The notes beneath the pieces were generated by a model, which saw nothing but the letters and a program-made list of their open reading frames with translations, was not told where the DNA came from and searched no databases. A program made the translations under genes and the position numbers. From IMG/VR virus record IMGVR_UViG_3300021399_000108, positions 1 through 64,000 of that record: 64,000 bases of DNA, one strand, 5' to 3'. Below are positions 6,061 through 63,919 of the stretch, in pieces. Source of the stretch: a virus (taxonomy: Duplodnaviria; Caudoviricetes). Each line of letters opens with the position of its first letter. The first letter of the stretch is position 1.

Positions 6061-6064
6061 TTAT
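6038..6064 (-). terminator. intrinsic terminator of the helicase gene
   Basis: AATAAGCGCAG-TCAAG-CTGCGCTTATT hairpin with a T-run on the minus strand. Confidence 0.7.
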
Positions 6065-7416
6065 TCATTTTCTTTTGCTGCTACGAGCTATAAGAATTCA
6101 TTATCTTTTATTTCTACATCATGCCATTCACCAGTAATATAATAGCATTGCATTATCTTTCCATTTATCTTTTTTCTTTTTTGCTCAACATTATAGCCCA
6201 TTACTGGCAAATAATCTTTTAATTTGTTCCACGTCATTATACGCGCGCAATTTTTATTTTTATTATCAAGCTACGGCACATTCATATATTCAGCTAACTC
6301 GCGGCAAACCTATACAGGCAGCCATGTATTTAAATACTAAGCTGGAATCTCAGGCGCTAAAACTTTCAAGTGTCGTTGATATTCAAATGTTTGGCGCGCT
6401 GCTTGTATTCTATCGACTTGATTAACAGAATCAATAATTACATGGTCAAAGCGTTTATCAACAATTGTGATGCCTCGCGCAAGAGCTCGATTAACAATCA
6501 CAAAATCATACTATGGCGGAATTAAGCCAGTAGCAACAATCATATTATATACTCGTTTTTGCTAGTCATCCATCGGCTTATCAGTATTTTGTAAAGAATG
6601 TAATTCAATAGCGTTAAAGCCTCGCGCACGAGCTGCACGAACAAGCTATTGATTAGGCTCGATTAAAGGAGAAAAGCACCAGTATCCATGTCCTGCCACT
6701 GGGACTAATTGATTTATATGTTCTATAATATTACAAAAATATATATCCTTAGCTACGCGATAGCCCATCTATAATTTGCCTTGATAACTCGCGCTTACTA
6801 ATGATTTATAATAGGTATACGCGCGTTCAGGTGTAGCAGACAAGCCAATACACATGATCTCGCCTAACTAAATAATGTGCTACCATTCGCCTAACAATAT
6901 AAGCGGCATATATTCTTTTTTAGTAGACATCTGTTGAATAACTGAAAGGACTTCTGCATTAGATACATCTCGTCTAGCGAAGTCAGTTTTACGTGCTTTT
7001 ACAAATGCTTGTGTAGCAAAATCAAAAATACTATCACACTAGTCCCAACAGATAACATCAATCTCTTTTAAAAAATCTGTCTCTTGCTTAATAAACTTCA
7101 TGCCTAGCCTCTGATAACACATTACGCCAATTTTATTATTACTCTATCCGTCCCAAGTATTAGGCTAATGCTGCCACATATCATCCGCTTCCATGCAGCT
7201 GTCACTATAATTTGCAAGTAACTAATCCTTTAGAGCGGTAGTATCTACTAGAAATAAAATACGACCAAGTTTACCATCTCTAGTAAATTGCTGTAAATTG
7301 TTCATCGCCCAATAAGTTTTTCCAGTGCGTATGCCGCAATCAATAATATTATAGTCACCGCGACGAAAAATTAATTTTTGTTGCTATTGTAAATCTGTAA
7401 CGGTAAGTTTATTCAT
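6061..7416 (-). CDS. SF2 (DExD) helicase, possible origin-binding protein; 451 aa with about 15 in-frame TAG read as Glu
   Basis: Manual translation: Walker A GIRTGKT, Walker B ICWD(TAG)CD, motif III GLSATPE; GAGGAG RBS; TAA stop; missing from the ORF track because of TAGs. Confidence 0.88.
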
Positions 7417-7569
7417 AGACTCACTCCTCTTTGTCACTTATATTATAGCATAATTTATAATATATGTCAAATATTTGGTAAATATTTTTTTCTAATGAAA
7501 AGTAGAAAATCTATCCTCTATTACATACATTTTACTCTTTTAATTAAAATAAAATTGTAGTAATAAAAA

Positions 7570-7962
7570 GGTATATTTTTTTGACTACACCCTATGCCCC
7601 TATTAGTAGGTAGTCAAAAAAATATACCAATTTTTTCCTTATATATATTTCTTATATATATAATATATTTACTTGTAGCTGCGAAGCTGCGAAGCAGCGT
7701 AGCTGCGGAAAGTAAATATATTATACGCGAAGCGAAGCGTAGCGGGCGAAGCCCGGTAGCGTAGCGAACGCGCAATCTACATTTATACTAATAGATAATT
7801 AAAATGTAGAAGAAAAAATGTAGAAGATTTTGGACCATACCCACGCTTCTTTTATTTCCACATGAAAAACTTCTACATTTTTTTATTACATATATATTTA
7901 AATAAGCTGCAATTTCAATTTCAATTTCATTTTAAAATTTCAATTTGCAATTTCATTTTCAA
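7570..7962. other. inverted repeats, GCGAAGC mini-hairpin cluster and AATTTC tandem repeats at the strand-switch point; candidate replication origin
   Basis: 19-bp IR 7570-7628; IR-bounded GCGAAGC/GCGTAGC units 7660-7773; AATTTC repeats 7911-7962. Confidence 0.5.
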
Positions 7963-8303
7963 ATGTCCCGAAAATTTCCCCGATTATACATAAAATTCCA
8001 TTTCCCAAAACAAAATTGTAATAGTCAAATACTTGACAAGAGTTAAAAATTATGCGCACACACTCATTTTTACCCCTATTTTCTAGTGATCGTCCCTCCT
8101 ACACGACGTCGTTTACAAATTTTTTTCGCGCTATTGTTTTTTCGTAATTATTTTTTGCCTACCTTTTTCTTATTTCTTTTATTTTTGTTTACATAGAGGT
8201 ATCCGTACTTACATCCCCATAGTTTATTTTTCACCCACTTCTTGACTTTTTTTAAATTTTATATTATAATATATATGTAAGGTAAGGAAAGGAGCATGAT
8301 AGT

Positions 8304-9008
8304 ATGAATAAGAAAATGGTATTTGAACATTATTGTGATTTACTTGATGATCTGCGCGAACAGTCGTTAGCATTTCAAAATTTTCTTATTCATAATGATA
8401 CCGATGAAGATTGGGTATTTGATAATGCGGAAGTAGCCTGCGGCGCTACTCGTGCGGCCTTAATTGATACCCAAAATGACTACCCGTATATTGTTAAGTG
8501 GGATATTGATTATGATGAATGGGGCGACAGTAGTTCTGCGCGCGAAGTTGAGATTTATAAGGAAGCCAAGCATTACGGACTAGCGTCATATTTTACCGAA
8601 GCTGTTTATTTAGGTGAGTATAGGCGTATTGTGCGGGCGCATGATATTGAGGGTTATTATACTAATTTGAGTAATGAAGAATTTCTAGACGCGGCTGAAT
8701 CCGAAGAACGAGAATTTGAAATTTCAATTCGGTTATATGGATATGAGCGCGCACAATGCGATGTGAGATATGCGGAAAAAGGTAGCCCCGCACAACAAGA
8801 TTATATTAATAAGTGCAATAGCCCGCTTACGCAACGGAATAAGCAGGTTGGGCTGTGGTTCTTCATGCAATATGGAGAAGATGTATTTAATAGATTAACT
8901 GATTTTTGTACTGCATTTAGTATTAATGATTTGCATATGGGAAATGTTGGTTTGATTGGTGATAATGTAGTAATCACTGATTTTGGTAGTTATCATTGTG
9001 ATGATTGA
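8304..9008 (+). CDS. protein kinase-like (PKL fold) protein
   Basis: GATR loop, IVK, EVEIY, DLHMGN catalytic loop, TDFG. Confidence 0.75.
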   Translation: MNKKMVFEHYCDLLDDLREQSLAFQNFLIHNDTDEDWVFDNAEVACGATRAALIDTQNDYPYIVKWDIDYDEWGDSSSAREVEIYKEAKHYGLASYFTEAVYLGEYRRIVRAHDIEGYYTNLSNEEFLDAAESEEREFEISIRLYGYERAQCDVRYAEKGSPAQQDYINKCNSPLTQRNKQVGLWFFMQYGEDVFNRLTDFCTAFSINDLHMGNVGLIGDNVVITDFGSYHCDD

Positions 9009-9067
9009 CATTTCATTTATTTTTTGTTATAATATATTTGTAAGAAAAAATAAAGGATGGAGAAATT

Positions 9068-9481
9068 ATGAATGACCCCCACTTGTTTCGTATTGCGCGC
9101 GAAGTATCATTGGAAGCTAGCTATTGCGGTTCTGCACGTATAGGTTGCATTGCGGTTTATCGCGGCACAATACTTGCAAAAGGTTGCAATAGCGATAAGA
9201 CGCATACTGCTCAGGCAAAGTTTAATGTGCATAGATTTAAGAATAGCGGCAATAGGTATTTGCCTTCTAAGGGTCATGCGGAGATTTTAACATTATCTAA
9301 GATTAAATATTTGGATATTGATTTTTCGCGCGTACATCTTTATATTTATAGAGAATGGAAAGATGGTACTATTGCCATGAGCAGACCATGTGATGCTTGT
9401 TTTGCCGCAATTCAAGAATTAGGGATTAAACATATTCATTATACCACCGATAGAGGATATGCATATGAGAAACTACGATAA
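9068..9481 (+). CDS. cytidine/deoxycytidylate deaminase family protein
   Basis: HAE...SRPCDAC zinc motif. Confidence 0.85.
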   Translation: MNDPHLFRIAREVSLEASYCGSARIGCIAVYRGTILAKGCNSDKTHTAQAKFNVHRFKNSGNRYLPSKGHAEILTLSKIKYLDIDFSRVHLYIYREWKDGTIAMSRPCDACFAAIQELGIKHIHYTTDRGYAYEKLR

Positions 9482-9616
9482 TTTCATTTTCATTTTGTAA
9501 TTAACAATTAAAATACAGGTGCGCGGTGCCCTTCGTCGGGGCATACCCGCTCGGCAAGCCGATCGGGTTGCTTATCCCGACGAAGCCGCGCGGATTCTTT
9601 TAAGGAGGAAAAGTAA

Positions 9617-11041
9617 ATGGATGCAACTGAACTACATAATATGGCATTGCAAGCATGTGATGCGAAAATTGAAGTGGTTTTTGTAGAAGAACTTAATCAA
9701 ATTATAACCGCTGCGCAAGCAGGTAGGTTTAGTATTATTTTAAATAATAATAATTTTACAGACACTTTTATTAATTATCTTAGAAGAAAAAATTTTAGAA
9801 TAGCATATTATAGAGATGATCAGCATCAGTGGTGTGAGTGCTATGAAAATACCAATATTCCTTGGTTTTCTTGTTCAAAATTATGTATTAAGTGGTAATT
9901 ATTTGACTAATAATAAAAATTATGTTATAATATATATAAAGAAAGGAAAGGAGAAAAATATGACTTTTAAGGAATTTTGTGAGAATTTTAACCGCGTGAT
10001 CAATGAATGCCCTGATGAAGATAATCCTTTTATTGATGCCGCAAATAGTGATTATGCAGAAGATTGGCTTGATTGGTCACTAAATCATCCTACCCAAGCT
10101 GAGGATTTTGTCGCAACATGGGTTAAGGATCATCCTGTACCCGTTTATCCTACTTTTGGTGAGTATCTTTCTGATATGGTTGCGCACGATCCTAATCTAG
10201 ATAAGATTCCGTTACAGCGACTACTTGATATGCCAATGAGTAGGAAGGTTGCAGAATATTACAATGTTACCCCGCTTAATCTTTGCGGCATTACTAAGTA
10301 TGCGCACATGGATTGGTGATAGATATGGTAACGGTATTTATTGCGGCGTCACCGCAACAATTTGAACAGGCTAAACAAGCGGAAAAGTTTGCGCGCGAAG
10401 CAGGAGCGGAAGTTCTTAATCCTGTTGTCTCATTACCTTGTCATTTAGCACCATGTTGTTATTTACCTATTGAGTTAGCGATGTTGGAAGCTAGTGATGT
10501 AATGTGGTTACTACCAAATAGTATGGAAAATTCTACGGTAGCAAGTTGTATTCATTATGCTCGCGCGCAACATATTACTATTGTTCTAGATGAACAAGAA
10601 TTAGTAGAAGAATTGAATAAGTATGATTATAACGAGCAGATAATGATGGAAGGAGTTAAGTAAATGGAGAAGATTGTACCGTATTATAATGAAGATCATT
10701 CTGCATATGCTGTGCTTGTTTCGCATGGATTTGGAAGCGGATGGGCAACTGATCATAATGATCTGCGACTTGCCTATGATTCTCGTATCATCCGCTGGTA
10801 TCTTTCCTTGGATGAGGAAGAGATTAGAATGATTCGTATGCGCGGCACTGATGAAAATAAGGCGGCGCAAGAATTTATTCGTTCTCTGGGATATGATATT
10901 GAGTTTCTTTATTTTGGCGGCTTTAAGCCTGATATGATTGAATGGGTACCTGTGGATAAAATATGGCGTTTGCATGAATATGATGGCGCTGAATCTATTG
11001 AATACTTGAACGAAGACGATTGGGTATGTTTTAATGGTTGA
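9617..11041 (+). CDS. hypothetical genes (9617-9898, 9960-10319, 10313-10663 DUF4406-like, 10664-11041)
   Basis: Co-oriented ORFs with RBSs; VLNP...LAMLEASDVMWLLP resembles DUF4406. Confidence 0.6.
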
Positions 11042-11172
11042 AGAAGCTTTACGTTATTTGGAAGTAATTGCGCGAGCAAATACAATAATGGCAGCTACAC
11101 AAGCTGTTATGGCAATGCTAATGTTACTATTTTATTTTATATATTTATTTAGAAATAAAGGAGATTAAGAAA

Positions 11173-11952: not shown

Positions 11953-12038
11953 CCATTATCATTCATTTATTAGGGACAAGTATTTGACTTGCCCCTAATT
12001 TTATGTTATAATATAGGAAAGAAGAAAGGAGGTATAAA

Positions 12039-13156: not shown

Positions 13157-13222
13157 AATAATTTTAGCGCATTTTCCCCAATCCAAGGGTAGGTAAGTGC
13201 ACGTTCATTATGGAGGTAAAAA

Positions 13223-13423: not shown

Positions 13424-13441
13424 AACAAGGAAGATGATGCT

Positions 13442-13609: not shown

Positions 13610-13638
13610 ACTAAAACTTAAACAGGAGATGATCCTAT

Positions 13639-14465: not shown

Positions 14466-14711
14466 ATGAATAGTAAAGTATATATTATTAAACCTTATAA
14501 TAAATATATGTTGCCATAGCCAGGTGAGTAGATTCTATACAAATTTAATTTATATAATAATGAATATTGTATTAGTGAAACTAATTTATAGTGGGGCAAA
14601 CCAATTGTAGCTCGCCCGCTAGAATAGCAAGATGATTTTGGCTATCATTTATATAATACTTATGAATAGGCTTTGTCCTATGTTTTACAATTAAAACGAA
14701 TTGCGCGTTAA
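14466..14711 (+). CDS. hypothetical protein with 5 in-frame TAG
   Basis: Open 82-codon frame if TAG is sense; TYE*ALSYV reads naturally as YEEAL. Confidence 0.65.
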
Positions 14712-14723
14712 AGGAGAATTAAT

Positions 14724-23510: not shown

Positions 23511-23537
23511 AAAGAGAGGATGAAATCCTCTCTTTTT
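23511..23537. terminator. bidirectional terminator
   Basis: AAAGAGAGGAT-GAA-ATCCTCTCTTT between convergent genes. Confidence 0.75.
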
Positions 23538-24261
23538 AAATTTCTTTTAAATATTCACTTGCCGCGTATCCTATATGTCCATTATACTTAATCTTCCACC
23601 AATCCTAAATTTCCTTATCAATTAATATAACTCGCGCACCTTGTGGTATATGCGCGATTGCCTTAGATTTTTTCGTAGGACTTTCGCGCAGATTAAGATA
23701 ACTGCCAGGATTAGTGGTAATAGCATATTGTACTCCAATTTCATCTTGCTTTTCCGGCGCTTTATTATCATAACTTATGCACTTTAATTCTCCCCAAGCA
23801 TCCCAGTGAGCTAACTATGATGTTACGATACCCCATTGTGTGCCTTTGGCTTCGATAACTACATTATCACCGCAATATACACCAACATGGTGCTTGCGGC
23901 CTTGCTCATTAACCAGAAAAACTAGTGAGCCAGGAAGAGGTTCAGTACCATCTGCCCGTAATCCGTCTATCAACTTACCCTTATTACGGCAATAATCTGT
24001 GTATAAATAATGAGAATGATGGGCTACTTCTTCACCTAATTGATGGCAAGCCCAGCGCACTAACCCCGAACAATCAGCCACCATTCTGCCTATCCACTGG
24101 CTACCATATTGCTTTGTTTTCTTCCAATTGGTTTTAGAGGGTTGGGAATACGCACGTTGTAGCTATGTTGTCCAAATACGACCCCATGTACCATATATAT
24201 AGCCCCATTGCTGTTGTAATGGAATACGAACTTTCTATATAAAATCTTTTGCGTTTATCAT
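23536..24261 (-). CDS. endolysin-like cell-wall hydrolase: NlpC/P60-type domain plus SH3b; 4 in-frame TAG
   Basis: WGYIYGTWG...ADCSGL...HVGVYCG...EAKG, then YLNLRESP...WWKIKYNGHIGY; GGAGGT RBS; TAA stop. Confidence 0.85.
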
Positions 24262-26958: not shown

Positions 26959-27270
26959 ATGAAAATTATTGAAAAGCTATCTGATAAAATTTCTTGTGAA
27001 ATTTCTAATGCTGAATAGTATGCTAAATGTGCCCTTGAATATAAAGAAGAGAGGCCAGCATTAGCAGAAACTATGTATAAAATTGCTAATGGTAAACTGG
27101 AACATATGGGGCTATTACATACCCAAGTTGTTGCTATTATAAATGAATATAAACAAAGTAAGGGTTAGCCGTCAGAAGCAATGAAAACCTTATACTAGAT
27201 ACTACATCGTAAACATATAGAACATGCGGCTGCCGTGAAAGGTATGCTAGCTTTATATAAAGAAATGTGA
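26959..27270 (+). CDS. helical (ferritin-like) protein, 3 in-frame TAG
   Basis: MKIIEKLSDKISCEISNAE*YAKCALEYKE...KG*PS...LY*ILH; TGA stop. Confidence 0.8.
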
Positions 27271-27717: not shown

Positions 27718-28287
27718 ATGACAATTGAAGAAATTTTTACTGAATTAGTAAGTCATATGAAGAAAGGATTATCATTACATGATGAATTAACTCATCTCTA
27801 TGGTTTCCTTAATTTAAAAGGCTATTAGAAACAACAAGAATATCAGTATTTATCATAGTCTAAATCATATATATAGTTAAAGCAATTTTACTTAAATTAT
27901 TATAGAAAAATGATTATAGAAAAGGAAATTTAGCTATATAATCTTATACCTCAAAATTGGTATAAATATAAAAAAGAAAATGTAGATATTAGTACTAAAA
28001 GAACTGCAATACGAGACTTATTTAATAAGTGGTTATAGTGGGAAGAAAATACACAATTATTATTAAATAATTGTTACAAATAGTTGTATGATTTAAAATA
28101 GTTTACAAGTTGTGATAAAATTTTATCACTTTTAAATGATGTTAATGAAGAATTAACTGAATCGCGCAATTAGTATATCAATTTAGAAAGTTCCGGCTAT
28201 GATATAGTTTTTATTCTTGAAAGTCAATAGTAGCTTTATAAAAATTATATACATAAAATTAAAAAATTATATAGAGGAGATGATTAA
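27718..28287 (+). CDS. ferritin-like helical protein, 10 in-frame TAG including a tandem TAG-TAG
   Basis: 190-codon frame open only if TAG is sense; KWL*WE, YK*LYDLK*F; AAGGAGG RBS. Confidence 0.8.
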
Positions 28288-28289
28288 AA

Positions 28290-29177
28290 TTGATTCGTCT
28301 AGTAGATAAAAAACTTATCATCCCTCGTGGTGATACTGGCAGCTTTTCACTTCCAGCATTAACTTCTTTTTAGGAAGGAGACGTAGCTATATTTTCAATT
28401 ATGGATGCTAGAACAAATACAAATGTTCTACAAAAAGAATGTACTTATGAAAATGGTAATTTGACAATTGAATTTACTCATAATGATACTATAAATAAAG
28501 TGCCAGGGAAATATTATTGGGATATTAAAATTTATAAAGATGCAGAATTCTTAGAAGGGAAGTTAATTAATGGCACAGAAATTGATTCCTATTATGCTGC
28601 ATATCGTTTACCAATTTGTGAAATTAGACAAACTGGTGATACTTATTTAGCCGATAGCGATTAGGAGCAAATAGATAATAATACAATTAATTTTGTCGGT
28701 ACGGCTTTGGCTTAGGTTAATGCACTAAATACTCAGTTAGAAAGTGCATTAGACAAAATCCCATAGTATTTGCCTCCTTATAGTATTATACAAACTGCAA
28801 ATAGTTCAATACCACAATTTGATTTATCTGGTTCCTATCAACGTCTAGTTTTCCAAGGAAAGTATCAATTAATTGATGCTAATGGAAATGTTATAGACAC
28901 ATTTTTAACGGGAACAAATGTTACGAATACAGGTATCGCAGTTAGTTATATGGGATCTGTATTAATGATACCGTCTTATACTAAACCCGCTTTCGCTAAT
29001 GATGATTTTTCCTCTATTTATTACATTGTATGGGATACTACCAAATCATCATCTGAAAAAGTAAGTATTATTACACCAGATAAGAAAACGGATACAAAAT
29101 ATTTAATCGGTGTTTGGGATGCCAATACTAAAAAAGGTTGGATTAACGGTAATTATGTTAATACTATTGAAGGGTGA
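28290..29177 (+). CDS. baseplate-upper-protein-like (BppU-like N-terminus) structural protein, 4 TAG
   Basis: LIIPRGDTGSF...GKYYWDIKIY; joins track ORFs 28401 and 28770 in one frame. Confidence 0.7.
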
Positions 29178-31178: not shown

Positions 31179-32798
31179 ATGAGTACGTATAATATTAATA
31201 AAATTAAATTACCAAATGGTGATATTTGTAATTTAAAAGATTCAAATACAATTGACCCTATAAAGATATCTAGCCAATCTAATACATCAAACATTACTCT
31301 TCCAAGCGCGGCAAAAAATTATCCAATTGATTCATTTTAGATTAATTTAACACCAACACAAGAAGGAGAAGGGACCCCTAGTGTAAATAATATTAGAAAT
31401 ATTACTGGATGTACACATATTTAGGTTGAACGAAATAATAAAAATTTATATGCTCAAGGTGATCAAACATTTAAAGCTATACAATTAATTACGTTATCTA
31501 ATCCTTTACCAAGTGGGACATATACACTCTCTGCAGTAATTACAACTACTAACACTAATTCTCAAGGATGCCTAATACGTTTATTAACATAGAATGAAGT
31601 TGATTGTGATACAACAACACACAATTATTTACCATCAAAAAATGGAGCAAGAGTAGCACAAACATGGCATTTATCTTAGCCAGCATACAAAATGTACTTA
31701 TATGCTGGAATAAGTTATCCTGATGCTGCGTCTCATACAGCAACATATTCTAACATTCAAATTGAATATGGAGAATGGGCAACAGAATATGAACCATATT
31801 CAACGATTACTATCCCTATTGACTTTGATCCAATTTATTATGGTAAAATTGATCTTGTTAATGGTTTAATAACGCAATACACTGCTATGGCGGTATATGA
31901 CGGCAGTGCTGACGAACCTTGGAAGACAAATGATAATGATTTATTTTAGATTAGTTATAATAGTATTTCACCTACTCCGAAAAAATCACAATTTCTTAAT
32001 TAGACTTATTTTTTAAGTAATTTAGGCGTACCAGGTTCGAGAACAGAAGGTGTAATTCCTACTAAAGTTATGATTACTTGGAGTGGAATATTATATGCAT
32101 ATTTAGGTGCAACAATAGGTATTAGTAGTATGGCAGAATGGCGTGCGTGGTTAGCACAGCATCCTTTACAAGTAGTATATCAATTATAGACTCCAATAGT
32201 GTCTAAAATACCTTCTAATATTATTAAAACAATCTATGGTACTAATTATTTTAATATAAATCATGGGACTATTTCTAATATTCATTATGCAGTAGATCTT
32301 ACAGCTACTTTATCATACGGTGGTTTTATTAGAAAAAATAATTATGCTACAACTACCACTGGCGGTATAGTAAAAGTTAATGGATATGGATTAAAAATGG
32401 ATAATGGCCAAATAAAAACTGATGCTGCTACGACTTCAGAAATAAAAACTATTAATAGTAGCTATAAACCTCTTGTTCCTCAGCATCAGCATGAGGCAAC
32501 CTTTTATGGTTTAGCTACTGCTGCAGGGGATATAACACAAAAAGCTTCTTCTAATACAGTAGGATATTATACTGATTCAGCAATTGCTGCCATTTTACAT
32601 ATGTTAGGTATTGATACTTTAATTGGTAATTATGAAGCTGATGCGATTGCAGATAAAGATTATGCTATAGGAGAACTTTTTATGTATAATGGTAAATTAT
32701 ACAAAGTAACTTAGGCTATCTCTTTAGGTGGAACAATTACGCCTGGAACAAATAGTATTCAAACAAATTTAATAAATAGTTTAATTAGTACCAATTAA
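31179..32798 (+). CDS. tail fibre / receptor-binding-like protein, multiple TAG
   Basis: 540-codon frame joining track ORFs 31692 and 32199; GTPSVNNIRNITG, QIEYGEWATEYEPY. Confidence 0.8.
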
Positions 32799-33212: not shown

Positions 33213-35129
33213 TTGCGTATGGATATTATTGATGTAATTTTAGGTAGCGCACTTACTCCTCAGGGCGAAATTGAATCTTTTGCCACACGGGCTGAAAAAG
33301 CAGTTGCTGACGCAAATACCGCTCTTAATAATATTGAATCTATTACTGACCAAACAAACGCCAACAATGCCGCAGCACAAGAAGCACTTTCAACAGTTAA
33401 TACCGCATTAACCGAGCTTGAAGATGCTACCATTGATCTGGTTAATGACGAAGTTAAAAAACTAGCAATTGAATTAACGACTGTAAGCAATCAAGACAAT
33501 AGTATTGGTCAACGTTTTACTGTCCATTATCCTGATAGTAGCACACAAGTTATAAATAATGTAGCTAAATATTATACTAATAGTGGCAATAATGTTGATG
33601 GCACAATGACACAACGAGCAATTACCGAAGCAATTAGAACTGCGGTTAATAGCATTGTCATACCTTCTACTAATCTTGGCGCGCAAAATGCAAATAAAAT
33701 TGTTATTGTTGGGCCCGATGGAACTATTATTCCAAGTGCTAATGTAACAGAAGAATCTATTATGAACGGCACCCACGGTGGCGGTAGTGGTGGTGGTGAT
33801 ACGCCTACTCCTACACCAGGTCCCGCAACCGGTGTTGTTGGTGTTAAAATTAATTATAATACTGCTATTATTATACCAACAGATGATGCAATTAATGCTA
33901 CCACTATGGACTTTAACAATTTTAAAATGTATGGTGGTCGTATTAAATGCTTAGTAGATGATACTGGCGCAATTGTTGCGTTTTATGGTGATAGTCAATA
34001 TACTGATACTCCTAGTAATGGTTATCAAGTTATGATTTATCAGCCTAAATTCTATTATAAGCGTACTCCTAGTTTGCTTACGACAAATCAATATGGGACA
34101 GCAATTAAAGAAGAAGTATTACAATTATCTGATACTTTAAAGACTGGTTATAAACTTCATCCACTGTTTATTGATGAAAATGGTGCAGAACTTGAATATG
34201 CTTTGTTATCTGCTTATGAAGGGTCTATTGAAGCCGAAGATAATAGTTATTTAGATGTTACTTTTACTGATTTTCTTGCAACCAAGCTTAGTTCTGTATC
34301 AGACGCTAAACCAATTAGTGGAGTAAATAATACTCTTAATGCTATTAATGCTGAAAAATTAGCTAGTAATCGTGGCTATGGCTGGCATATTACTACTAGT
34401 AAAGCCCTTAGCGCTCAACAAATGCTTATGCTAGTTGAATTTAATGCCTTAAATGTGCAAATAAGCTTTAATGATGGTATTAGTAGATTGGCCTCAGGTG
34501 ATAATAATTCAACAAAAGGTGCACAAACTGGTGCAACTAAAATTTTAGGTAATCAAACAGGGCAAGCTTCTTCAACTTCTTTCTATTACGATAACAATAC
34601 TTATACAGAAACAGAAACAGGAAAAGTATCAATAGCATATCGTGGTTACGAGAATCCGTGGGGCAATATGTGGGATTATATTGGTGATCTTGTAATTAAG
34701 AATAATTCTTCAACTAATCACACATTATATATGTGTAATAATTATAATTATTCAGAAAATATTACTAATAATTATACTGCATTACCATTTACTCCGCCAC
34801 CGACTACTGGTTGGATTTCAGCTTTTGCTTATGATACAGAATATGATTGGCTATTTTTACCTATTGAATGTAATTCTAACGCTAATTCCTTAACTCCTAT
34901 TGGTGATCACTTCTTTGGCGCGCGTACTAATACTGGTGTTAGTACTTGTATAAACGGTGGCCCTTGGTTTGGAGAAGATAATAATGGTATTTTCTATTAT
35001 ACTTTTGATCGGAAAACAACCGAATCTGGCGGGAAAAATGTAGGAGCGCGTTTACTTCATATCCCACAAGCAACTAGTTCTATTTATATTAATAATGTTG
35101 TTAAATGGAATACAAAAATGGGAGGTTGA
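33213..35129 (+). CDS. tail/receptor-binding protein (coiled-coil N-terminus, C-terminal YRGxENxWGN domain)
   Basis: QVMIYQPKFYYK, LHPLF, YRGYENPWGNMW, GARL. Confidence 0.75.
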   Translation: MRMDIIDVILGSALTPQGEIESFATRAEKAVADANTALNNIESITDQTNANNAAAQEALSTVNTALTELEDATIDLVNDEVKKLAIELTTVSNQDNSIGQRFTVHYPDSSTQVINNVAKYYTNSGNNVDGTMTQRAITEAIRTAVNSIVIPSTNLGAQNANKIVIVGPDGTIIPSANVTEESIMNGTHGGGSGGGDTPTPTPGPATGVVGVKINYNTAIIIPTDDAINATTMDFNNFKMYGGRIKCLVDDTGAIVAFYGDSQYTDTPSNGYQVMIYQPKFYYKRTPSLLTTNQYGTAIKEEVLQLSDTLKTGYKLHPLFIDENGAELEYALLSAYEGSIEAEDNSYLDVTFTDFLATKLSSVSDAKPISGVNNTLNAINAEKLASNRGYGWHITTSKALSAQQMLMLVEFNALNVQISFNDGISRLASGDNNSTKGAQTGATKILGNQTGQASSTSFYYDNNTYTETETGKVSIAYRGYENPWGNMWDYIGDLVIKNNSSTNHTLYMCNNYNYSENITNNYTALPFTPPPTTGWISAFAYDTEYDWLFLPIECNSNANSLTPIGDHFFGARTNTGVSTCINGGPWFGEDNNGIFYYTFDRKTTESGGKNVGARLLHIPQATSSIYINNVVKWNTKMGG

Positions 35130-35134
35130 TTATA

Positions 35135-35392
35135 ATGAAACAAATTACTAATATTCATAGTAATGGCATCCCAAACTCTGTTGAAATTTTTAGTGACCAA
35201 GTATTTGTTCCTAAAAATGTACATGAATTTAGTAAAATAACTGATGACGGCACAATTACTGGTTATGAATTCGATTGTGATGTATATACCAAAGACTAGT
35301 ATATAATTCTTATGGCACAACAGACTAATCGTATTGCAGAATTAGAAGACGAACTCGCCGCAGCAAAAATACTATTGGGGGTTGATGAATAA
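35135..35392 (+). CDS. small tail-associated protein, one TAG
   Basis: YTKD*YIILM...AAKILLGVDE; TAA overlaps the next ATG. Confidence 0.8.
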
Positions 35393-37615: not shown

Positions 37616-37796
37616 GGGCCAGCACCGCCCGAAATAGGTGCCGTGGGGAACGCCAGCGCGCATCTGGTGAGGGCGAAAAGGTAGAAGGCACTGCCCGGGT
37701 TCGACTCCCGGCGGAGGAGGGTCGCGGTGTCAGAAAACCCTGATGCACTTAGAGTCTAGCCCAGCTCAAAGGTTGGCCGCCTGAGAGCGCAAATTG

Positions 37797-37868
37797 ATTC
37801 CAGTAGTTTAATGGAGAGAATACTCACCCAGTGGTGAGAGATGTTGGTTCGACCCCAACCTGGTGCCG
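37797..37868 (+). pseudogene. degenerate tRNA-like element
   Basis: D- and T-arms present; 6-nt anticodon loop; weak acceptor stem. Confidence 0.45.
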
Positions 37869-37892
37869 CACATCGTTCGCGGTATATTAAGT

Positions 37893-48320: not shown

Positions 48321-48321
48321 T

Positions 48322-50009: not shown

Positions 50010-50020
50010 GCCGACAATAT

Positions 50021-51246: not shown

Positions 51247-51256
51247 TACCCTACAT

Positions 51257-51330
51257 TGGGGATTCGTATAACGGGAGTACTTTTGGCTTTGACCCAGACA
51301 GCGAAGGATCGTCACCTTCATCCCCAGCCA
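51257..51330 (+). tRNA. tRNA-Gln(UUG)
   Basis: Cloverleaf; U1-A72; loop CT-TTG-AC; CCA end. Confidence 0.85.
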
Positions 51331-51345
51331 TAAAGGAGAAATAAT

Positions 51346-51822
51346 ATGCCAATACTTTATATGTTATGTGGGCCTAGTGCATCAGGGAAAAGCACCTGGG
51401 CTCATAATTTTATCAGTAAAAATTCACAAAAAGATATACGCTATGTATCACGTGATGAAATACGTTTTTCACTACTGAAAGAAAATGAAAAGTATTTTGC
51501 GCATGAAAAGCAAGTATTTAAAAAATTTGCTGGTACAGTTACACAAACACTTGTAGATGGATTTGATGTAATTGCAGATGCGACGCATTTGAATATCTTT
51601 TCTCGTAAAAAATTAACTAATGCAATTGATAAATTTTATACTGATTATCAAATTATTTACATAATTTTTGATATTCCATTACAAGATATTTTAAGCCGCA
51701 ATCAACAACGTCTAGGACTTGAACAAGTGCCGGAAGAAGAAATAAAAAGAATGTACAATGATTTTTCGCCGCCAATTCACGAAGATAATAGAGAAATTGA
51801 TCGGTATATAGTAAAGGAGTAA
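51346..51822 (+). CDS. polynucleotide kinase-like P-loop protein (AAA_33)
   Basis: GPSASGKST, SRDEIR, DATHL, RNQQR. Confidence 0.85.
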   Translation: MPILYMLCGPSASGKSTWAHNFISKNSQKDIRYVSRDEIRFSLLKENEKYFAHEKQVFKKFAGTVTQTLVDGFDVIADATHLNIFSRKKLTNAIDKFYTDYQIIYIIFDIPLQDILSRNQQRLGLEQVPEEEIKRMYNDFSPPIHEDNREIDRYIVKE

Positions 51823-51826
51823 GAAA

Positions 51827-52438
51827 ATGGAACTATATCTTACTAGTGATACTCACTTTTGTCACACTCCTAATTTTCTTTGGGAACCACGCGGTTTTTC
51901 TTCTGTGGAAGAAATGAATGAAGCTATTGTAGAACGATGGAATAAAGTAGTAAAACCAAATGATCGGGTAATTCATCTTGGTGATGTTATGCTCTCAGAT
52001 ACTGAAAAAGGTCTTGAATATTTCAAGCGGCTTAATGGAGAAATTTGTCTTATTTTCGGGAACCACGACTCCCCTCGGCGGCAAGAAGAACTAGCTAAGC
52101 TTCCTAATGTTATTATTCTTGGATATGCTCATGTATTTAAATATAAAAAGCTTACATTTTATGTTTCTCATTATCCGACTTTAACTGGAAACTATGATGA
52201 AAAACATTTTTCTCAACATGTAATAAATTTGCATGGACATACACATCAACAAGCTAATTTTTTATATCCTAATAATCCATTTATTTATCATGTAGGAGTT
52301 GACTCTCATAATTGTACCCCAGTACATATTGATGAAGTTATTACGGATATTCGGCAGCGCTGGAACGATTTACAGACACTAAAAATTCCAATTCAAGAAT
52401 TGTATATGTATCCAATGAAGGAGAATAAAAATGAATGA
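51827..52438 (+). CDS. calcineurin-like metallophosphoesterase
   Basis: SDTHF, HLGD, GNHD, SHYP, HGHTH. Confidence 0.9.
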   Translation: MELYLTSDTHFCHTPNFLWEPRGFSSVEEMNEAIVERWNKVVKPNDRVIHLGDVMLSDTEKGLEYFKRLNGEICLIFGNHDSPRRQEELAKLPNVIILGYAHVFKYKKLTFYVSHYPTLTGNYDEKHFSQHVINLHGHTHQQANFLYPNNPFIYHVGVDSHNCTPVHIDEVITDIRQRWNDLQTLKIPIQELYMYPMKENKNE

Positions 52439-56252: not shown

Positions 56253-56624
56253 ATGAATATATTATATGAGGGTATGAGCGGTTCCGCCGCAAATCCACAA
56301 CTAGGTGGGCTATTGCTTTCTATTGGTATAGTTGTTATGATAGTAGGGACAATACTTCTCGCACTTTCAGGTGCAGATGAGAATTGGCTAGTTTTACTTA
56401 TAATTCCACTTGCATGTATTATTATTGGAGTTTTTAATCTTATAGATAGTCGAACACCAGTTGTTAAAGCAACATTAAATGATACCATTCCATTTACCGA
56501 AATTCAAAAGCATTACGAATATGTAGATAAAGAAGGCGATATCTATATTTTTAAGCCGCGTAATATCAATATAGATGAATGGGAACGACAAGTAAAAGAG
56601 CAAAATAAAGAAGCTGATGAATAA
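56253..56624 (+). CDS. membrane protein
   Basis: Two hydrophobic segments. Confidence 0.65.
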   Translation: MNILYEGMSGSAANPQLGGLLLSIGIVVMIVGTILLALSGADENWLVLLIIPLACIIIGVFNLIDSRTPVVKATLNDTIPFTEIQKHYEYVDKEGDIYIFKPRNINIDEWERQVKEQNKEADE

Positions 56625-56655
56625 AGAACACACATATCAGTAGGAGGTGATTGGC

Positions 56656-57123
56656 GTGACAATTGATGAATGCCGCCTAAGTATTTAGGCGCATAGGTAG
56701 AAAGTCCGCAAATACATTCGATTTTTTACTGATAGATTAACTACACGTGGAGAACGTCATGATTTAAGTAAATTAGAAGAACCTTAGCTATCTGGTTTTG
56801 CTCAATATACAGATTGTTTAAAAGATTTAACATATGGTTCTCCTGAGTATTATGAAAATTTACAAGCTTTACGTCCTGTGTTAGATCATCATTATGCAGT
56901 GAATCGTCATCATCCTGAGCATTGGAAAAATGGTGTTTCTGAAATGACACTCGTGGATATAATTTAGATGATATGTGATTGGAAAGCATCTAGTGAACGA
57001 CAAAAAGATGGTAATCTATTACTTTCAATAGAAAAAAACGCAGAACGTTTTAATATAGATGATCAATTAAAACAAATTTTAATTAATACTGCTAAAATTT
57101 TAGATGAAATAGATTAGAGATAA
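56656..57123 (+). CDS. DUF5662-like (HD-type) protein, 5 in-frame TAG
   Basis: HDLSKLEEP*L, HHYAVNRHHPEH, LVDII*MICDWKA; GGAGGTG RBS, GTG start; absent from the ORF track. Confidence 0.85.
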
Positions 57124-57363
57124 AGGAGAATAATTATGACTAATGAAGAAAAAATTGCCGCTCTCGAATATCGTCGTGATAAACTACTAAGTCGTGGTTT
57201 TTTTAATCATAATCTTGCCGCAAAAGTACAACGTAAAATTTATCAATTGCAGAAAAAGAAGGAGGAAGAAAAAGTATGAATCCCTGTTGGCTTATTCCAA
57301 CATTTCTCGCAGGAGTGTTCATTGGGATCGCACTTATCGCACTTATCTCTGCAAATCGACTTG

Positions 57364-58212: not shown

Positions 58213-58236
58213 GGCCAGAAGTGGCCTTATTTTGGT

Positions 58237-59766
58237 ATGGAGGTTTCAATGAAAATTAAGTTAAAAATTGGACGTCAAGATAACGCTGATTATTTTGGTG
58301 TTAATGTTGATGATATTATTGAAATTGAATTTGAACGCTATCTAATCGGTGTAGTTGCATCAGAAATTGGCAATAGCAATTTAGAAGCTTGTAAAGCACA
58401 AGCAATAGCTTCACGAACATACGCTATGTCTCGAAATGTATTGATTGGTGAACCAATTTCTGATTCAGCAAATGTTATGGCTTATCGGGCCACACGAGAA
58501 AATCAAAATAAATTTCCTAATGCTTATAAAGCAGTAAATGAAACACAAGGTAAGATACTTACTTATAATCATGTACCAATTCGTGCAGTATATTCTGCAA
58601 ATAATGGCGGGCGAACTACCTCATCAGAAGAACGTTGGGGCAGTGTTTTTCCTTATTTAATCGCGCAAGATGACCCTTGGGATGCAGCAGATGGGCATCC
58701 TAAAAAAGGACATGGAGTAGGATTAAGTCAACTAGGAGCAATATATGCAGGCGCGCATAATATAGATTATAAAACAATTCTTACCTTTTACTACCCAAAT
58801 GCCGTATTAACAGAAAATTACGGCGAGGAGGTAAAAAGTATGAACGTATTTTTAAATGAAAAAGCAAAAAATATTATAGAACTTGCTCGACAACATTTAG
58901 GACATCCTTATGTATACGCGGGTGCAGGTCAATTATGTATTCCTGATAATAGAAGGAAAAAAATTAATAGTACATATCCTGACATTGTAAATAAATGCAA
59001 TGTATTAAATGGTAGTAATACTAATTGTGAAGGATGTAAATATCAAGGTTGCCGCTTTTTCGATTGCCGAGGTTTTACATATTGGATACTTAAACAAAAT
59101 GATGTTAATATTTCCGCAGTTGGCGCTACAACACAATATAATACTGCTGTCTCATGGATAAAACGTGGAAAAATTGAAGACATGCCAAATGTAGTATGCT
59201 GCGTTTTTAAATATAAAGATGATAGTAAACAAATGTCGCATACTGGTTTACATATAGGTAATGGTGTAATTATACATTGTACCGGCGTGAAATTAGGAGA
59301 GGTACAATATGATGCTGTTGGTGGCCAAGGCTGGACACATTTTGCAATTCCAAAAGATTTATATACATTAGATGAAATAAATCAAGCTGAGAAATTAACT
59401 ATTCTTGCTGGATTAAAGAAAGGTGCAACTGGAATTGCTGTCACAGAATTACAACAGAAATTAAATGAATTAGGATATTCTTGTACTGTTGATGGACGTT
59501 ATGGGACCGATACGGCCAATGCTGTAAAACAATTCCAGCAAAAATATCGTTTAACAGCTGACGGAATCGCGGGCGCAATTACAAGAACATTATTAGTTAA
59601 TATAGTGCCTGATAATAATTATACAAAACCTCAAATTAATTTTGAAGCTGAGCAAGTACCTGAATCTATTACAATTATGCCTATTATTAATAATAATAAA
59701 GTTTCACTTATCTTAGACAAAAAATTAGCAGAAGCTTTATATAAAGCATTAAAACAAATATTATAA
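58237..59766 (+). CDS. multidomain cell-wall hydrolase: SpoIID/LytB, NlpC/P60-like and peptidoglycan-binding domains
   Basis: YLIGVVASE...KAQAIASRTYA, GHGVGLSQLGA; FDCRGF...HTGLHIG; LQQKLNELGY...DG.YG..T..AVKQFQ. Confidence 0.88.
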   Translation: MEVSMKIKLKIGRQDNADYFGVNVDDIIEIEFERYLIGVVASEIGNSNLEACKAQAIASRTYAMSRNVLIGEPISDSANVMAYRATRENQNKFPNAYKAVNETQGKILTYNHVPIRAVYSANNGGRTTSSEERWGSVFPYLIAQDDPWDAADGHPKKGHGVGLSQLGAIYAGAHNIDYKTILTFYYPNAVLTENYGEEVKSMNVFLNEKAKNIIELARQHLGHPYVYAGAGQLCIPDNRRKKINSTYPDIVNKCNVLNGSNTNCEGCKYQGCRFFDCRGFTYWILKQNDVNISAVGATTQYNTAVSWIKRGKIEDMPNVVCCVFKYKDDSKQMSHTGLHIGNGVIIHCTGVKLGEVQYDAVGGQGWTHFAIPKDLYTLDEINQAEKLTILAGLKKGATGIAVTELQQKLNELGYSCTVDGRYGTDTANAVKQFQQKYRLTADGIAGAITRTLLVNIVPDNNYTKPQINFEAEQVPESITIMPIINNNKVSLILDKKLAEALYKALKQIL

Positions 59767-59782
59767 TAAAGGAGGTAAAAAT

Positions 59783-62700
59783 ATGCCATTTAGTCATATA
59801 TATAAAAAAAATAATAAATGGAGATTTGGGTAGGCCATTACTCCGCAAGAATTAAATGCGATTAGTGATACCTTAGAATAGGTTACTACTGTACTAACTA
59901 ATACAAATAGCTTAAATAATATCAAAGATGGAACAGGAACTGGATCAATTATAGAAGGATTACTAAATTTAACTCCAGATACATATACTGAAGAACAAGA
60001 TGCAAATGCCAATATCGCGAATGGTAATTATGCTCATGCCGAAGGTTTCAGTACAACAGCATCAGGAGAAATAAGTCATGCCGAAGGTGCATATACTTCT
60101 AGTATTGGTAAATCAAGTCACGCTGAAGGAAAATCTACAATCAGTAATGGAGAAAGTAGTCATGTTGAAGGTGAACTTTCTGGTTCCGTTGGAAAATGGT
60201 CTCATGCAGAAGGATACAGATCTCATACATATGGAGAGGCCGCTCATGCTTAGGGTTACAATACTAATGCTCATAATACAGGTGCTCATGCGGAGGGCTC
60301 AGGCGCATATGCCAGCGGAGTAGGTGCCCATGCTTAGGGATATCAATCTCAGGCTAATAAAGAAGGCAGCCATGCTGAAGGATATAGTACACATGCCACT
60401 AAAATGGGCGCTCATGCAGAAGGTATCTTAAGCACAGCTTCTGGCCTGTATTCTCATGCTGAAGGACTAAATACAGAAGCTTCAGCAGAAAGTTCTCATG
60501 CTGAAGGAAATACCACAAAAGCTAATAAAAAAGCACAACATGTGTTTGGACGTTTTAATGTTGCAGAAGATGGTACAACAAATGATTATGGAACTTATGT
60601 TGAGATTGTTGGTAATGGTACATCAACTACTCAATGTTCTAATGCTCGTACTTTAGATTGGCAGGGCAATGAAGTATTAGCTGGTGGAATAACATTAGGA
60701 AAAGGAACAGATACAGAAATTAATATTACACCTACACTTGCTCAAACTATTATGAGTAGTGTAGAAGATACGAATATGTTAAAAAATAGTATTTTAGATT
60801 TAACTTCTTTAAATAGCACTGGAATTGATTTTATACATGATACATATACTGGTGAAACACAAATAAATATATATAAAAATTTACCCTCGGGTGAATACAA
60901 TTTAACTATAGACAGCATAGTAAGTGATGATACTGATGCTTCTACATGTCAATTATTATTTACTAATCGTAATGCATCTACTACAGTATTAGTATTATTA
61001 TTATCACGTGATACCTTAATTAATAATACTATTACACTGACATCAGATGTCGAACGTGTTATATTATATGCATCAAATAGTTATCCTCATAGTATGGGAG
61101 ATACATTTACTTTTAATAATATTCAAATTAGTTCAAGTTCTAAATTAGTAAATGCTATTAATAAACTTAGTAATGATATATAGCAATTTAAAAATGATAA
61201 TCGAGAAATAGTATTTAGTGGTGAACTATTTCAAGGAACACAATCTTTAAGAGTAAATACACATATTGATCCAGGCGAATATATTTTACATTGTGGCCCT
61301 ACAATTAGTTCTGATACAGACAGCTCTTGGTCAGGTATATGGTTTGGTAAAGGTAATACTGATGAAATCACTATAACTTTTCCTCGTGATGAGGTATCAA
61401 AATATATTAAATTTAATAATGAAGTTACTGATATTGTTTTTTGGGCATCTGATACTTTTTTTAAAGGTGTGAATGATACTTTTAAATTTCAGAATGTTTG
61501 GATTGAAAAAATAAATTCTTTACCCGAAACATTAAAACTACCAGAAACATCAACATTATATACATTTACTGGTTCCACTGTATCTAATCAAGATATACGC
61601 TATAATCATCATATTTTACCTGGCAGTAAGATTGAAATTAAATCTTCTACCACTGATAATCAAAGTGGCGTACTATAGGTACGATGCTATATGCCAGACA
61701 ATCCTGATTATTATAGACAACATGGCTGGGATATGAGTATAAACAGTACTTATTCATTTATCGCACAAGCAGAATATACAGCAATTATATTCAGAACAGT
61801 ACAATCCTATAATAATGTTAAAATTGATATTACCATTAACGATGTTTTTTCTGCTCATACACGATTATGTGCGTTAGAATAGCGGTTCCAAGAAGAATCA
61901 TCTGCATATATTATTAAAAATAAAAATTATTCTGGCACTACTTTACTTGAAATACCACAATAGTTCCCAGAAGGTGATTACTTAATTTCAGTGGAAAATA
62001 TAACTTCTACTGATACAGATACTGATAGTTGTTTAGTATTTTTTACTAGTAATGACGCTAATGTAGAACGTGCAAGAGTATTACTAGAACGTGGAGTGTC
62101 ACAAACATATCAAATATATATTCCTGCTGATACTCATAAAATGTTTTTATTCGCAAGTTCAACAGGTTATGCCGACAGTAGAAATGATCAATTTAAATAC
62201 ACTAATTTAACCATTCAAAAATATGATACTACTAGTAATCGTACTCCAATTTTAACGCCTCTTGGCTTTGAATGGACTACACATCCGTTATTTGGACATT
62301 TGTTTCGTTCTGAAAGAGGAATTGAATGTGATTTTGATATTACGAATTACAAACCTGTCGCTAACTCAACAGTATGGGTGTCTCCATCTGGAGATGATAG
62401 CTTTACTGGAATTGATTCTGTCCATCCCTTAAAATCTCTTAAAACCGCATTAAACCGAAAAAATGTTGATACAATTATCGTGGAAGATGGATTTTATACT
62501 ATTTCTATGGCACCACAAGAAATTAATACTTTAGACCATTCTGTAGCAATTCTCGCCGCAGAAAATGCTCATCCCGTTATTTCTACTAACGCAGGACCAC
62601 ATACCTTCGCTAAACTAGGTGAATATTCTTATGTTTATTCAGTTAAAGTTAATAGTAATTGTGTATGGGACATTCCTAATGCGAGGCCGTTATCTTATGT

Positions 62701-63511
62701 TGGTTCTATTGCATTAGTTAATAGTACTCCTTCATCTTATTTTACTGATGGCACATACACTTATGTTCATACTAAAGACGGGTCCGCACCAACAAATAAT
62801 ATTAGATGCTGCCCCCAAGCAGAAAACTGTAAACTTATAACCGAAGGTCGCATTACAGTATATCTCGAAGGTTTGACTTTTTGTGGCGGTAATCAAGGCG
62901 CTTTCCATGCGTGTAATAGCGTAGCCAATATTCGTCCTCGAATATATGGAAAAGATTGTATATTCGTTGGGGCTGTCGGCGGTGGAGCCTGTTTTTTAGA
63001 AGGATGTGAAAGTATTATGCAAGGCTGTGAAGCATGTGAATCTGTTAATGATGGATTCGGTATTCATAGAAATAATACTAAAGTACATACTTCTCCTTAT
63101 GCGATTGAAATTAATTGTTAGGGACACCATAATGGTAGACCGGCATAGGGTGGATATCTTACAAAAAATGGTAGTACATCACACGCTGGCGCGAAAGTAA
63201 TTAGAGTTAATGGCTCATATCATCATAATTATGGTCCTAATGTTGGTGATGTACATAATAATACTCAAAGTTGGAATTTAGGTTGTCAAGCATATTGTTC
63301 GACCGTAGGCACTGATCAGCGGAACAATGTTGATTATATAATTTCAGATGGTACTACTCCAAAAATGTGGCTAGATACATGTGCAGGCTACGGTTCTTTA
63401 CATTCTTTAGTTGTTGTAGGAGAACCTAATGGTAATGTACAAGCTTTTGTAAAAAATAGTGTTTTATCCAATGTTGTAGTTGAAGGTACTGGCACATTAA
63501 TTGCTTATTAA
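59783..63511 (+). CDS. large tail fibre/adhesin (1242 aa) with 12 HxEG repeats and a C-terminal beta-helix; multiple in-frame TAG
   Basis: One frame joins track ORFs 60404, 61469, 61691 and 61991; AAGGAGGT RBS; TAA stop. Confidence 0.85.
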
Positions 63512-63533
63512 TATTAATAAATTAGTTTAATAT

Positions 63534-63562
63534 TTGACTTTTCTTTTAATTTTTGATATAAT
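63534..63562 (+). promoter_or_regulatory. sigmaA-type promoter for ORF 63596 and the suppressor tRNA
   Basis: TTGACT-17nt-TATAAT with extended -10 TG. Confidence 0.8.
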
Positions 63563-63595
63563 ATATATAGAAAAATAAAAAAGGAGAAATAATAA

Positions 63596-63823
63596 ATGGG
63601 TAAACTATTTTTTGAAAATTCTCAAGGTAGCCGTCGAGAAATTGCTTCTAATATTTCTAGAGAAGATTGTGGAAAAGAAATTCAAAAGTTTATTCAAGAT
63701 CATAATAAAGGCAAGCCGAAAGATAAGAAGTTTCATTCATACTATACCCGTACTTGGGAAGAAAATGGAGAAACAGTATTTGATGTAGGCTCATGGAGCG
63801 AATTTTTCTATTATAAAAATTAA
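63596..63823 (+). CDS. conserved phage hypothetical protein
   Basis: SYYTRTW...FDVGSWSEFF. Confidence 0.8.
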   Translation: MGKLFFENSQGSRREIASNISREDCGKEIQKFIQDHNKGKPKDKKFHSYYTRTWEENGETVFDVGSWSEFFYYKN

Positions 63824-63844
63824 TCGCGGGTAATACCCGCGTGT

Positions 63845-63919
63845 GGCGGTGTCTTCTAGTGGTTAGGAAAGCGGTCTCTAAAACCGCGAACCTGAGTTCG
63901 ATTCTCAGTACCGCTACCA
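63845..63919 (+). tRNA. amber suppressor tRNA (anticodon CUA) with a tRNA-Glu-type body
   Basis: GGCGGTG/TACCGCT acceptor, GCGGT-CT-CTA-AA-ACCGC anticodon arm, 4-nt variable loop, TTCGATT T-loop, encoded CCA. Confidence 0.93.

Follow-up and report, generated by a model that had tools for sequence, protein, structure and literature searches.

UAG as a probable glutamate codon in a tailed phage that carries a tRNA-Glu-type amber suppressor

We analysed the first 64 kb (64,000 nucleotides, hereafter the window) of IMGVR_UViG_3300021399_000108, a 163,520-bp virus record of the Caudoviricetes (33% G+C; 93% complete by CheckV), in which an initial annotation, made from the sequence letters, had proposed that the stop codon TAG encodes glutamate (Glu) and not glutamine (Gln). 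Taking only TAA and TGA as stops resolved both the window and the whole genome into long abutting genes with in-frame TAGs, of which the called open reading frames (ORFs) hold 363 genome-wide; one of the TAG-bearing genes specifies a tail protein of 5384 amino acids (aa) with 96 TAGs. ARAGORN identified 14 tRNA genes in the window, one of them with the anticodon CUA (63845-63919) and none of them a tRNA-Glu. The TAG-bearing window genes considered here are the following, G006 being one of six related genomes introduced below.

6061-7437, minus strand: superfamily 2 (SF2) helicase of the ResIII type with 15 in-frame TAGs
14466-14711, plus strand: 81-aa ORF with 5 TAGs, common only to G006
23536-24261, minus strand: NlpC/P60 and SH3 cell-wall hydrolase with 4 TAGs and homologues outside the phage family
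26908-27270, plus strand: 120-aa ORF with 3 TAGs, that at 27166 opposite Glu
27718-28287, plus strand: conserved 189-aa protein with 10 TAGs, mostly aligned to Glu or aspartate (Asp); position 28171 is lysine (Lys) in all relatives
28290-29177, plus strand: 295-aa ORF with 4 TAGs
31179-32798, plus strand: 539-aa ORF with 8 TAGs at variable columns and an orthologue almost only in G006
35105-35392, plus strand: 95-aa ORF with a TAG at 35297-35299 opposite Glu
56617-57123, plus strand: DUF5662 protein with 6 TAGs
59783-63511, plus strand: tail fibre of 1242 aa with 10 TAGs

TAG is a sense codon in this phage. Summing ORFs over all six frames did not separate the candidate codes, and the coverage of the genome by non-overlapping ORFs of at least 100 aa was used instead. 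This coverage rose from 54% to 78% when TAG was read as sense, compared with only 59% when TGA was made sense as a control, and a relative with the standard code showed no real gain from the same change (76% to 78%). TAG ended none of the 70 conserved genes scored in this phage and none of the 61 in G006; two standard-code relatives used it as terminator at 5 of 85 and 4 of 79 conserved gene ends. TAA was the main terminator in this phage (46/70). The initial annotation had counted about 18 genes that need TAG as sense, in agreement with the 17 TAG-bearing window ORFs that have orthologues in related phages together with the NlpC/P60-SH3 gene and its outside homologues, and the coordinates and contexts of all the TAGs it cited were correct.

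We considered whether the in-frame TAGs might have arisen through errors of sequencing or assembly, or mark pseudogenes, with no recoding involved. Nothing was found in favour of this explanation, and it can be regarded as already refuted. The 363 TAGs lie within otherwise intact genes, the 5384-aa one included; the same 15 helicase TAGs recur in the independent assemblies P0002 and P0003, where the protein collection reads them as Q; and 23% of the TAG sites of this phage are also TAG in G006. Random errors from G to T would moreover yield in-frame TAA from the commoner GAA codon, and the reading frames, which are themselves defined by TAA and TGA, hold none. A cognate tRNA(CUA) is also encoded.

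Relatives were sought with several queries. A scan of IMG/VR with the helicase alignment yielded 40 loci of the same phage family, many of them in complete genomes of 165-190 kb. The tail protein used alone as a query for related loci in IMG/VR gave no match, and GenBank phages gave none to a megablast of 9 kb or a tblastn of the 539-aa ORF. Six of the 40 loci were taken as whole genomes for comparison with this phage: G001, G002, G003, G005, G006 and G010.

For these seven genomes, ORFs were called with TAG as X, best hits were aligned by blastp with X neutral in scoring, and the partner codon was taken at columns with ungapped context of five residues on either side. With a conditional residue matrix built from the same orthologue alignments, all 20 amino acids were scored as the meaning of TAG in a manner similar to that of Codetta. 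Glu fitted best at the 237 in-frame TAGs of this phage that fall in aligned orthologue columns, with a log-likelihood of 451 over Gln and 563 over Asp, and it also fitted best in G006 (553 aligned sites; 1428 over Gln). The pipeline can separate the two amino acids, because it returned Gln for three sister phages, G002, G003 and G005 (346-395 aligned sites each; 708-876 over Glu). G001 and G010 had only 3-4 aligned TAG sites and effectively use the standard code. Genomes of the first two kinds are referred to below as Glu-type and Gln-type.

Since relatives are not independent and such margins are thereby inflated, each site was also counted once, a conserved site being one with at least three relatives and at least 75% agreement. 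The consensus was Glu at 44 of the 57 conserved TAG sites of this phage and at 118 of 140 in G006, and Gln at 44/49, 46/62 and 51/77 in the three Gln-type genomes. At the TAG sites of this phage that were identical in at least four relatives, the residue was Glu in 28, Gln in 2, Lys in 1 and Asp in 1.

The residues found opposite the TAGs of this phage (43% Glu, 12% Asp, 8% Gln and 7% Lys) parallel those opposite Glu codons (56% Glu, 9% Asp, 4% Gln and 5% Lys) and not those opposite Gln codons (42% Gln, 10.5% Glu). Viewed from the codons of this phage, G006 has TAG opposite 9.7% of Glu codons and 3.4% of Gln codons, and the Gln-type genomes have it opposite about 1% and 7-9.5%, respectively. 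A search for the trace of an earlier Gln stage found that 3-5% of TAG positions are shared with Gln-type relatives, which lies between the Glu-codon and Gln-codon baselines. The likelihoods, conserved sites, residue profiles and reciprocal rates strongly support a reassignment of UAG from stop to Glu in this phage and its sub-clade, a reading to which we assign a probability of about 0.87. The TAG columns are dominated genome-wide by Glu, as the initial annotation proposed, rather than by Gln or by a mixture of residues; Gln-dominated columns, the mark of code 15, are what the sister genomes show.

Individual sites point in the same direction. The motif II Glu of the helicase (D123-E124-C125-D126) is specified by the TAG at 7039-7041 in the context VICWD*CD, and its column holds Glu in five whole-genome relatives and TAG in the sixth, G006, which bears out the placing of a TAG at the catalytic Glu of Walker B. 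The D-E-C-D is invariant in 18 relatives; the assignment of motif II is based on it and on Pfam ResIII because neither the helicase nor its profile gave a usable match in sequence searches of the PDB. Among the 15 TAG columns of the helicase, relatives translated by table 11 show Glu at 9-10, Gln at 2 (72 and 450) and arginine (Arg) at 1, the rest being variable. RuvC residue 140 is TAG here and in G006 and Glu in all five non-Glu-type relatives. Of 120 homologues of the DUF5662 protein, 79 have Glu at TAG column 28, 118 at column 57 and 109 at column 117. Among the 12 HAEG repeat units of the tail fibre, 10 use a Glu codon, 2 use TAG (60251 and 60335) and none uses a Gln codon, exactly as had been read from the sequence.

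Among further TAGs that had been placed at Glu positions, those at 35297, 56965, 56785 and 27166 all proved to lie opposite Glu in relatives. Glu was seen at both 28036 and 28081 as well, together with Asp and Lys at the former and Arg and Lys at the latter. All four TAGs of the NlpC/P60 hydrolase fall at variable columns among 150 distant homologues and carry no information on meaning. Searches of PHROGs and Pfam returned no family for most of the TAG-rich ORFs.

The tRNA that would read these codons lies near the end of the window, and the elements around it, together with a phage tRNA-Gln used as comparator, are as follows.

63845-63919, plus strand: amber-suppressor tRNA(CUA) with a tRNA-Glu-type body (ARAGORN; Rfam RF00005, 56.6 bits)
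63534-63562, plus strand: sigma-70-type promoter-like site, near consensus (TTGACT-17-TATAAT with TG), about 280 nt upstream of the suppressor; a pattern match only
63927-63958, plus strand: terminator-like hairpin directly after the suppressor; a pattern match only
51257-51330, plus strand: phage tRNA-Gln(UUG) with U1-A72 and G73, unlike the suppressor

The suppressor folds as a canonical 75-nt cloverleaf with an encoded CCA. It has G1.U72, A73, U8, C9, the anticodon loop CUCUAAA, a D-stem of U10-A25, U11-A24, C12-G23 and U13.G22, an 8-nt D-loop and a 4-nt variable loop without base 47. Its anticodon, CUA, is one base (36) away from the Glu anticodon CUC, and is neither UUC nor CUC. We scanned the D-arm 14-mer TCTAGTGGTTAGGA over one genome per prokaryotic species and examined the first 120 stretches; among the matches listed, 106 of the 113 tRNA hits were in tRNA-Glu, 7 in other tRNAs and none in tRNA-Gln. 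Over the whole molecule the suppressor is 73-75% identical to bacterial tRNA-Glu, and several of those tRNAs also have G1.U72 and A73. The TCTAGTGGTTAGGA D-arm and the 4-nt variable loop are thus shared with bacterial tRNA-Glu (UUC or CUC) and with the laboratory amber suppressors derived from it, and G1.U72 and A73 with some bacterial tRNA-Glu; the present tRNA differs from these in being a natural, phage-borne CUA tRNA that is conserved with compensatory changes in at least three variants.

An 84% identical copy of the suppressor is present in G006, and three non-Glu-type genomes have no copy. The three variants (this phage, G006 and L111, and L241) are almost constant in the acceptor stem and D-arm, whereas their anticodon and T stems show compensatory base-pair changes, as expected if selection acts on a functional tRNA whose identity elements are fixed. 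A pattern search of IMG/VR for the suppressor gave 14 matches, of which 3 were tRNA(CUA), those three all belonging to this lineage. A tRNA-Glu(UUC) was absent from both Glu-type genomes and present in all five others. Descent of the suppressor from the family's own tRNA-Glu(UUC) is unsupported, the overall identity being no higher than to other isotypes. Pyrrolysine decoding was also set aside, given the canonical cloverleaf with its Glu-type D-arm and the Glu found at TAG columns; the ARAGORN label 'Pyl' reflects the anticodon only, and pyrrolysine genes were not specifically searched for.

G002 and G005, both Gln-type, have suppressors that belong to another lineage than this one. That of G002 (117710-117978) has an intron of about 190 nt in the anticodon loop according to ARAGORN, and that of G005 (51768-51854, complement) is 87 nt long, with an expanded variable region containing CCTCTGAAG; both adjoin a tRNA-Pro(UGG). 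G001 has a tRNA-like gene with a CUA anticodon by ARAGORN (91293-91369, complement), though TAG is still a terminator there and its conserved genes have almost no in-frame TAG; this gene may be a suppressor that lies dormant or has been mispredicted, or it may mark an initial step to recoding. In the window itself, ARAGORN reported a tRNA-like gene at 37796-37869 on the plus strand, with a 6-nt anticodon loop (a two-base 'anticodon', ag) and acceptor-stem mismatches, which may be a degenerate or unusual member of the tRNA cluster.

No match to PF00749 (GluRS/GlnRS) or PF00472 (release factor) was found in this phage, G006, G001, G002 or G005, so that host enzymes must charge the suppressor. 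Host GluRS is probably the enzyme that does so with Glu, given a phage-encoded tRNA(CUA) with the acceptor stem, D-arm and short variable loop of bacterial tRNA-Glu. GluRS recognises its tRNA mainly by the augmented D-helix and U35; in most Bacillota GlnRS is missing, and Gln-tRNA is made by way of GluRS and the amidotransferase GatCAB, which picks tRNA-Gln by U1-A72 and the D-loop. By these rules, Glu should remain on a tRNA that combines a Glu body with G1.U72. In the mechanism we propose, G1.U72 and the tRNA-Glu-type D-loop, in place of U1-A72, would let the attached Glu escape conversion to Gln by GatCAB, the suppressor would be a poor substrate for GlnRS, and the charged suppressor would outcompete release factor 1 at UAG.

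Several observations weigh against a simple Glu assignment. Besides the inflated margins already mentioned, conservation is lower at TAG columns than at those of true Glu codons (43% against 56% Glu), and the amino acid at TAG is deduced from comparison and conservation. Helicase columns 72 and 450 and DUF5662 column 24 (104 of 120 homologues) are Gln in most relatives; three late-gene TAG sites have Gln in relatives and TAG in Gln-type relatives; and the TAG at 28171-28173 falls at a column that is uniformly Lys (AAG or AAA). TAGs at Gln columns include sites in the genome ORFs 120404-136555 and 136622-137509, both on the minus strand. GluRS normally reads the anticodon, and Normanly et al. 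(1990) reportedly found some mischarging with Gln of an amber suppressor made from Escherichia coli tRNA-Glu. The few exceptional sites could have arisen by one-step changes from CAG or AAG to TAG at tolerant positions or been left by exchange with Gln-type phages, or they could point to a degree of ambiguous decoding.

These exceptions also bear on whether TAG means Gln after all, as in code 15, which is taken to apply to every TAG-recoded phage, with its matches to Glu being tolerated Glu-to-Gln replacements. Code 15 is the only published meaning of TAG in phages, sister phages of the family do fit Gln, some TAGs of this phage lie at Gln-conserved columns, and databases already give Q in these genes. 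In a large protein collection, the helicase (P0001) has 474 homologues at 70-96% identity, and the closest of them show Q at every TAG position because the collection holds code-15 translations, as was seen on looking up the DNA: P0010 translates only with TAG as Q, whereas P0020 translates by table 11 and hence shows real codons. Code-15 translations, with Gln at every TAG, account for the public proteins P0002, P0003, P0010 and P0122 of Glu-type phages, and P0002 and P0003 accordingly read D-Q-C-D at helicase motif II. We consider a Gln meaning very improbable. It fits worse than Glu by the log-likelihoods given above for both this phage and G006, it predicts 42% Gln among aligned residues where 8% is found, and it would replace by Gln both the motif II Glu, which is invariant, and a RuvC Glu kept in all relatives. 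The suppressor, too, is unlike tRNA-Gln.

A variant of this idea is that UAG is ambiguous, being read mostly as Glu with a sizeable fraction of Gln that arises from partial amidation by GatCAB or from mischarging by GlnRS; TAG would in that case be selected for at sites that accept either residue, or at sites that need Glu yet bear some Gln. Gln is indeed roughly 1.5-2 times as frequent at TAG columns as opposite Glu codons (8% and 4%), and the three Gln-conserved sites at which Gln-type relatives also have TAG, as well as the reported partial Gln charging of tRNA-Glu suppressors in E. coli, fit such a scheme. However, Asp, serine and Lys are inflated about as much as Gln, which is expected if TAG occupies less constrained sites, TAG is found at functional and invariant Glu residues, at which a high share of Gln would do harm, and the suppressor lacks U1-A72. 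We therefore hold substantial ambiguity to be improbable, though less so than a plain Gln code, and retain Glu as the probable meaning of UAG in this phage.

TAG makes up about 10% of the Glu codons and is distributed unevenly between genes (chi-square P = 4e-39 here and 2e-90 in G006). It is enriched in virion genes, lysis-type genes and some nuclease and helicase genes, and the replication module (genome positions 81950-103116; L001 and L002) is free of it. This module takes in the genes for GyrB- and GyrA-like topoisomerase subunits, an AAA_24 protein, a DnaB-type helicase, RecJ, DNA polymerase III alpha and the anaerobic ribonucleotide reductase NrdD. These genes and that for PhoH are among fifteen large ones that together contain 604 Glu codons; the expected number of TAGs in the fifteen is 68, and none is seen. 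In the tail, tail-fibre and other late genes, and in those for the ResIII helicase, RuvC and a GIY-YIG protein, TAG occupies 5-50% of Glu positions. One tail gene of the window is without TAG.

33213-35129, plus strand: TAG-free tail protein with 30 Glu codons

This early/late partition argues that infection begins in a cell that still terminates at UAG. As has been thought for other recoded phages, recoding might delay the translation of late genes until the suppressor has been made.

The host is probably an anaerobic member of the Bacillota, to judge from regulatory motifs and gene content. At genome positions 151872-151966 this phage has two CtsR-type boxes lying between two perfect CIRCE (HrcA) operators, which had been noticed from the sequence at the outset, and G006 has two perfect CIRCE elements at 152635-152698. 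About half of the long ORFs have a Shine-Dalgarno-like motif upstream, compared with 5% of random positions, and the phage encodes an anaerobic ribonucleotide reductase.

The same features can be cited for the alternative that such a host itself reads UAG as Glu and the phage follows it, as code-25 phages follow Absconditabacteria, with the phage tRNA serving only as a booster. We judge this unlikely, while giving it somewhat more weight than the other rival readings: the TAG-free replication module and the very uneven use of TAG form the pattern of phages that start in a standard-code cell, sister phages read TAG as Gln or stop, and the phage brings its own suppressor. None of 401 sampled Clostridia genomes held a tRNA combining the Glu D-arm with a CUA anticodon loop. 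A BLAST search with the suppressor against three Clostridia-type genomes returned fragments only.

In a quick maximum-likelihood tree of one gene, the helicase, this phage, G006 (L042) and the ENA contig L009 formed one clade with SH-aLRT support of 98, nested in a family with 28 Gln-type and 8 TAG-less sequences and with a mostly TAG-free sister group. The tree suggests that the Glu code likely had a single origin. The helicase clusters P0004-P0006, P0008-P0010 and P0081 and the IMG/VR contig L241 are Glu-type as well; L111 has the same suppressor tRNA as G006 and too few aligned TAG sites for typing. At least three or four close relatives appear to share TAG as Glu. In G001, the orthologue of a 619-aa late protein (161106-164240; L054) is interrupted by an insertion of about 1.3 kb, which may be an intron or a homing-endonuclease insertion.

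The recoded phages described so far offer a close parallel. Code-15 phages (crAss-like, Lak, Garnet, Topaz and others; Borges et al., 10.1101/2021.08.26.457843; Peters et al., PMC9523058) resemble this phage in having TAG in virion and late genes and TAG-free early and replication genes, in carrying their own tRNA(CUA), in not using TAG as terminator and in the large gain in coding density, and sister phages of the same family fit code 15. The differences are that TAG columns are Gln there and Glu here, and that the suppressor here is of tRNA-Glu type and unrelated to those of the Gln-type sisters. The peritrich ciliate code (NCBI table 30) likewise turns a stop codon into Glu, but it is a eukaryotic nuclear code that covers UAA and UAG genome-wide, whereas here a bacterial virus uses UAG alone in a subset of genes and UAA stays the main stop. 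Borges et al. (10.1101/2021.08.26.457843) found only TAG to Gln and TGA to Trp among phages with a non-host code, and a 2026 jumbo-phage survey treated TAG recoding as code 15. We found no report of UAG as Glu in a phage in a search of the full-text literature that covered few subscription-journal papers, in line with the suggestion of the initial annotation that this code may be undescribed.

In summary, UAG in this phage is a sense codon that is probably read as Glu by a phage-encoded suppressor charged by the host. Such a reassignment would widen the range of natural genetic codes beyond the published view, in which phage recoding yields only Gln or Trp and those two synthetases alone can be hijacked. 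It would also mean that public annotation is wrong in placing Gln at hundreds of Glu positions, including helicase motif II, and thereby misleads the prediction of function and structure. A natural, compact Glu amber suppressor for Gram-positive anaerobes may in addition serve as a tool.

We tentatively propose, as a possibility that is more doubtful than the Glu assignment itself, that a single family of 165-190-kb phages of anaerobic Bacillota reads UAG as stop, Gln or Glu, that the Glu code arose once via a suppressor derived from tRNA-Glu, that only GatCAB sets the choice between Gln and Glu, and that the code acts as a recombination barrier. If so, hosts with GluRS and GatCAB would charge every UAG suppressor with Glu first, and recognition of the tRNA by GatCAB, or the lack of it, would alone fix what the codon means. 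Late genes of either recoded lineage would be mistranslated under the code of the other, and a barrier between co-infecting relatives could result. One phage family with two recoded meanings of UAG besides the standard code would thus provide a natural test of how a codon changes its meaning and of whether differences in code isolate related viruses.

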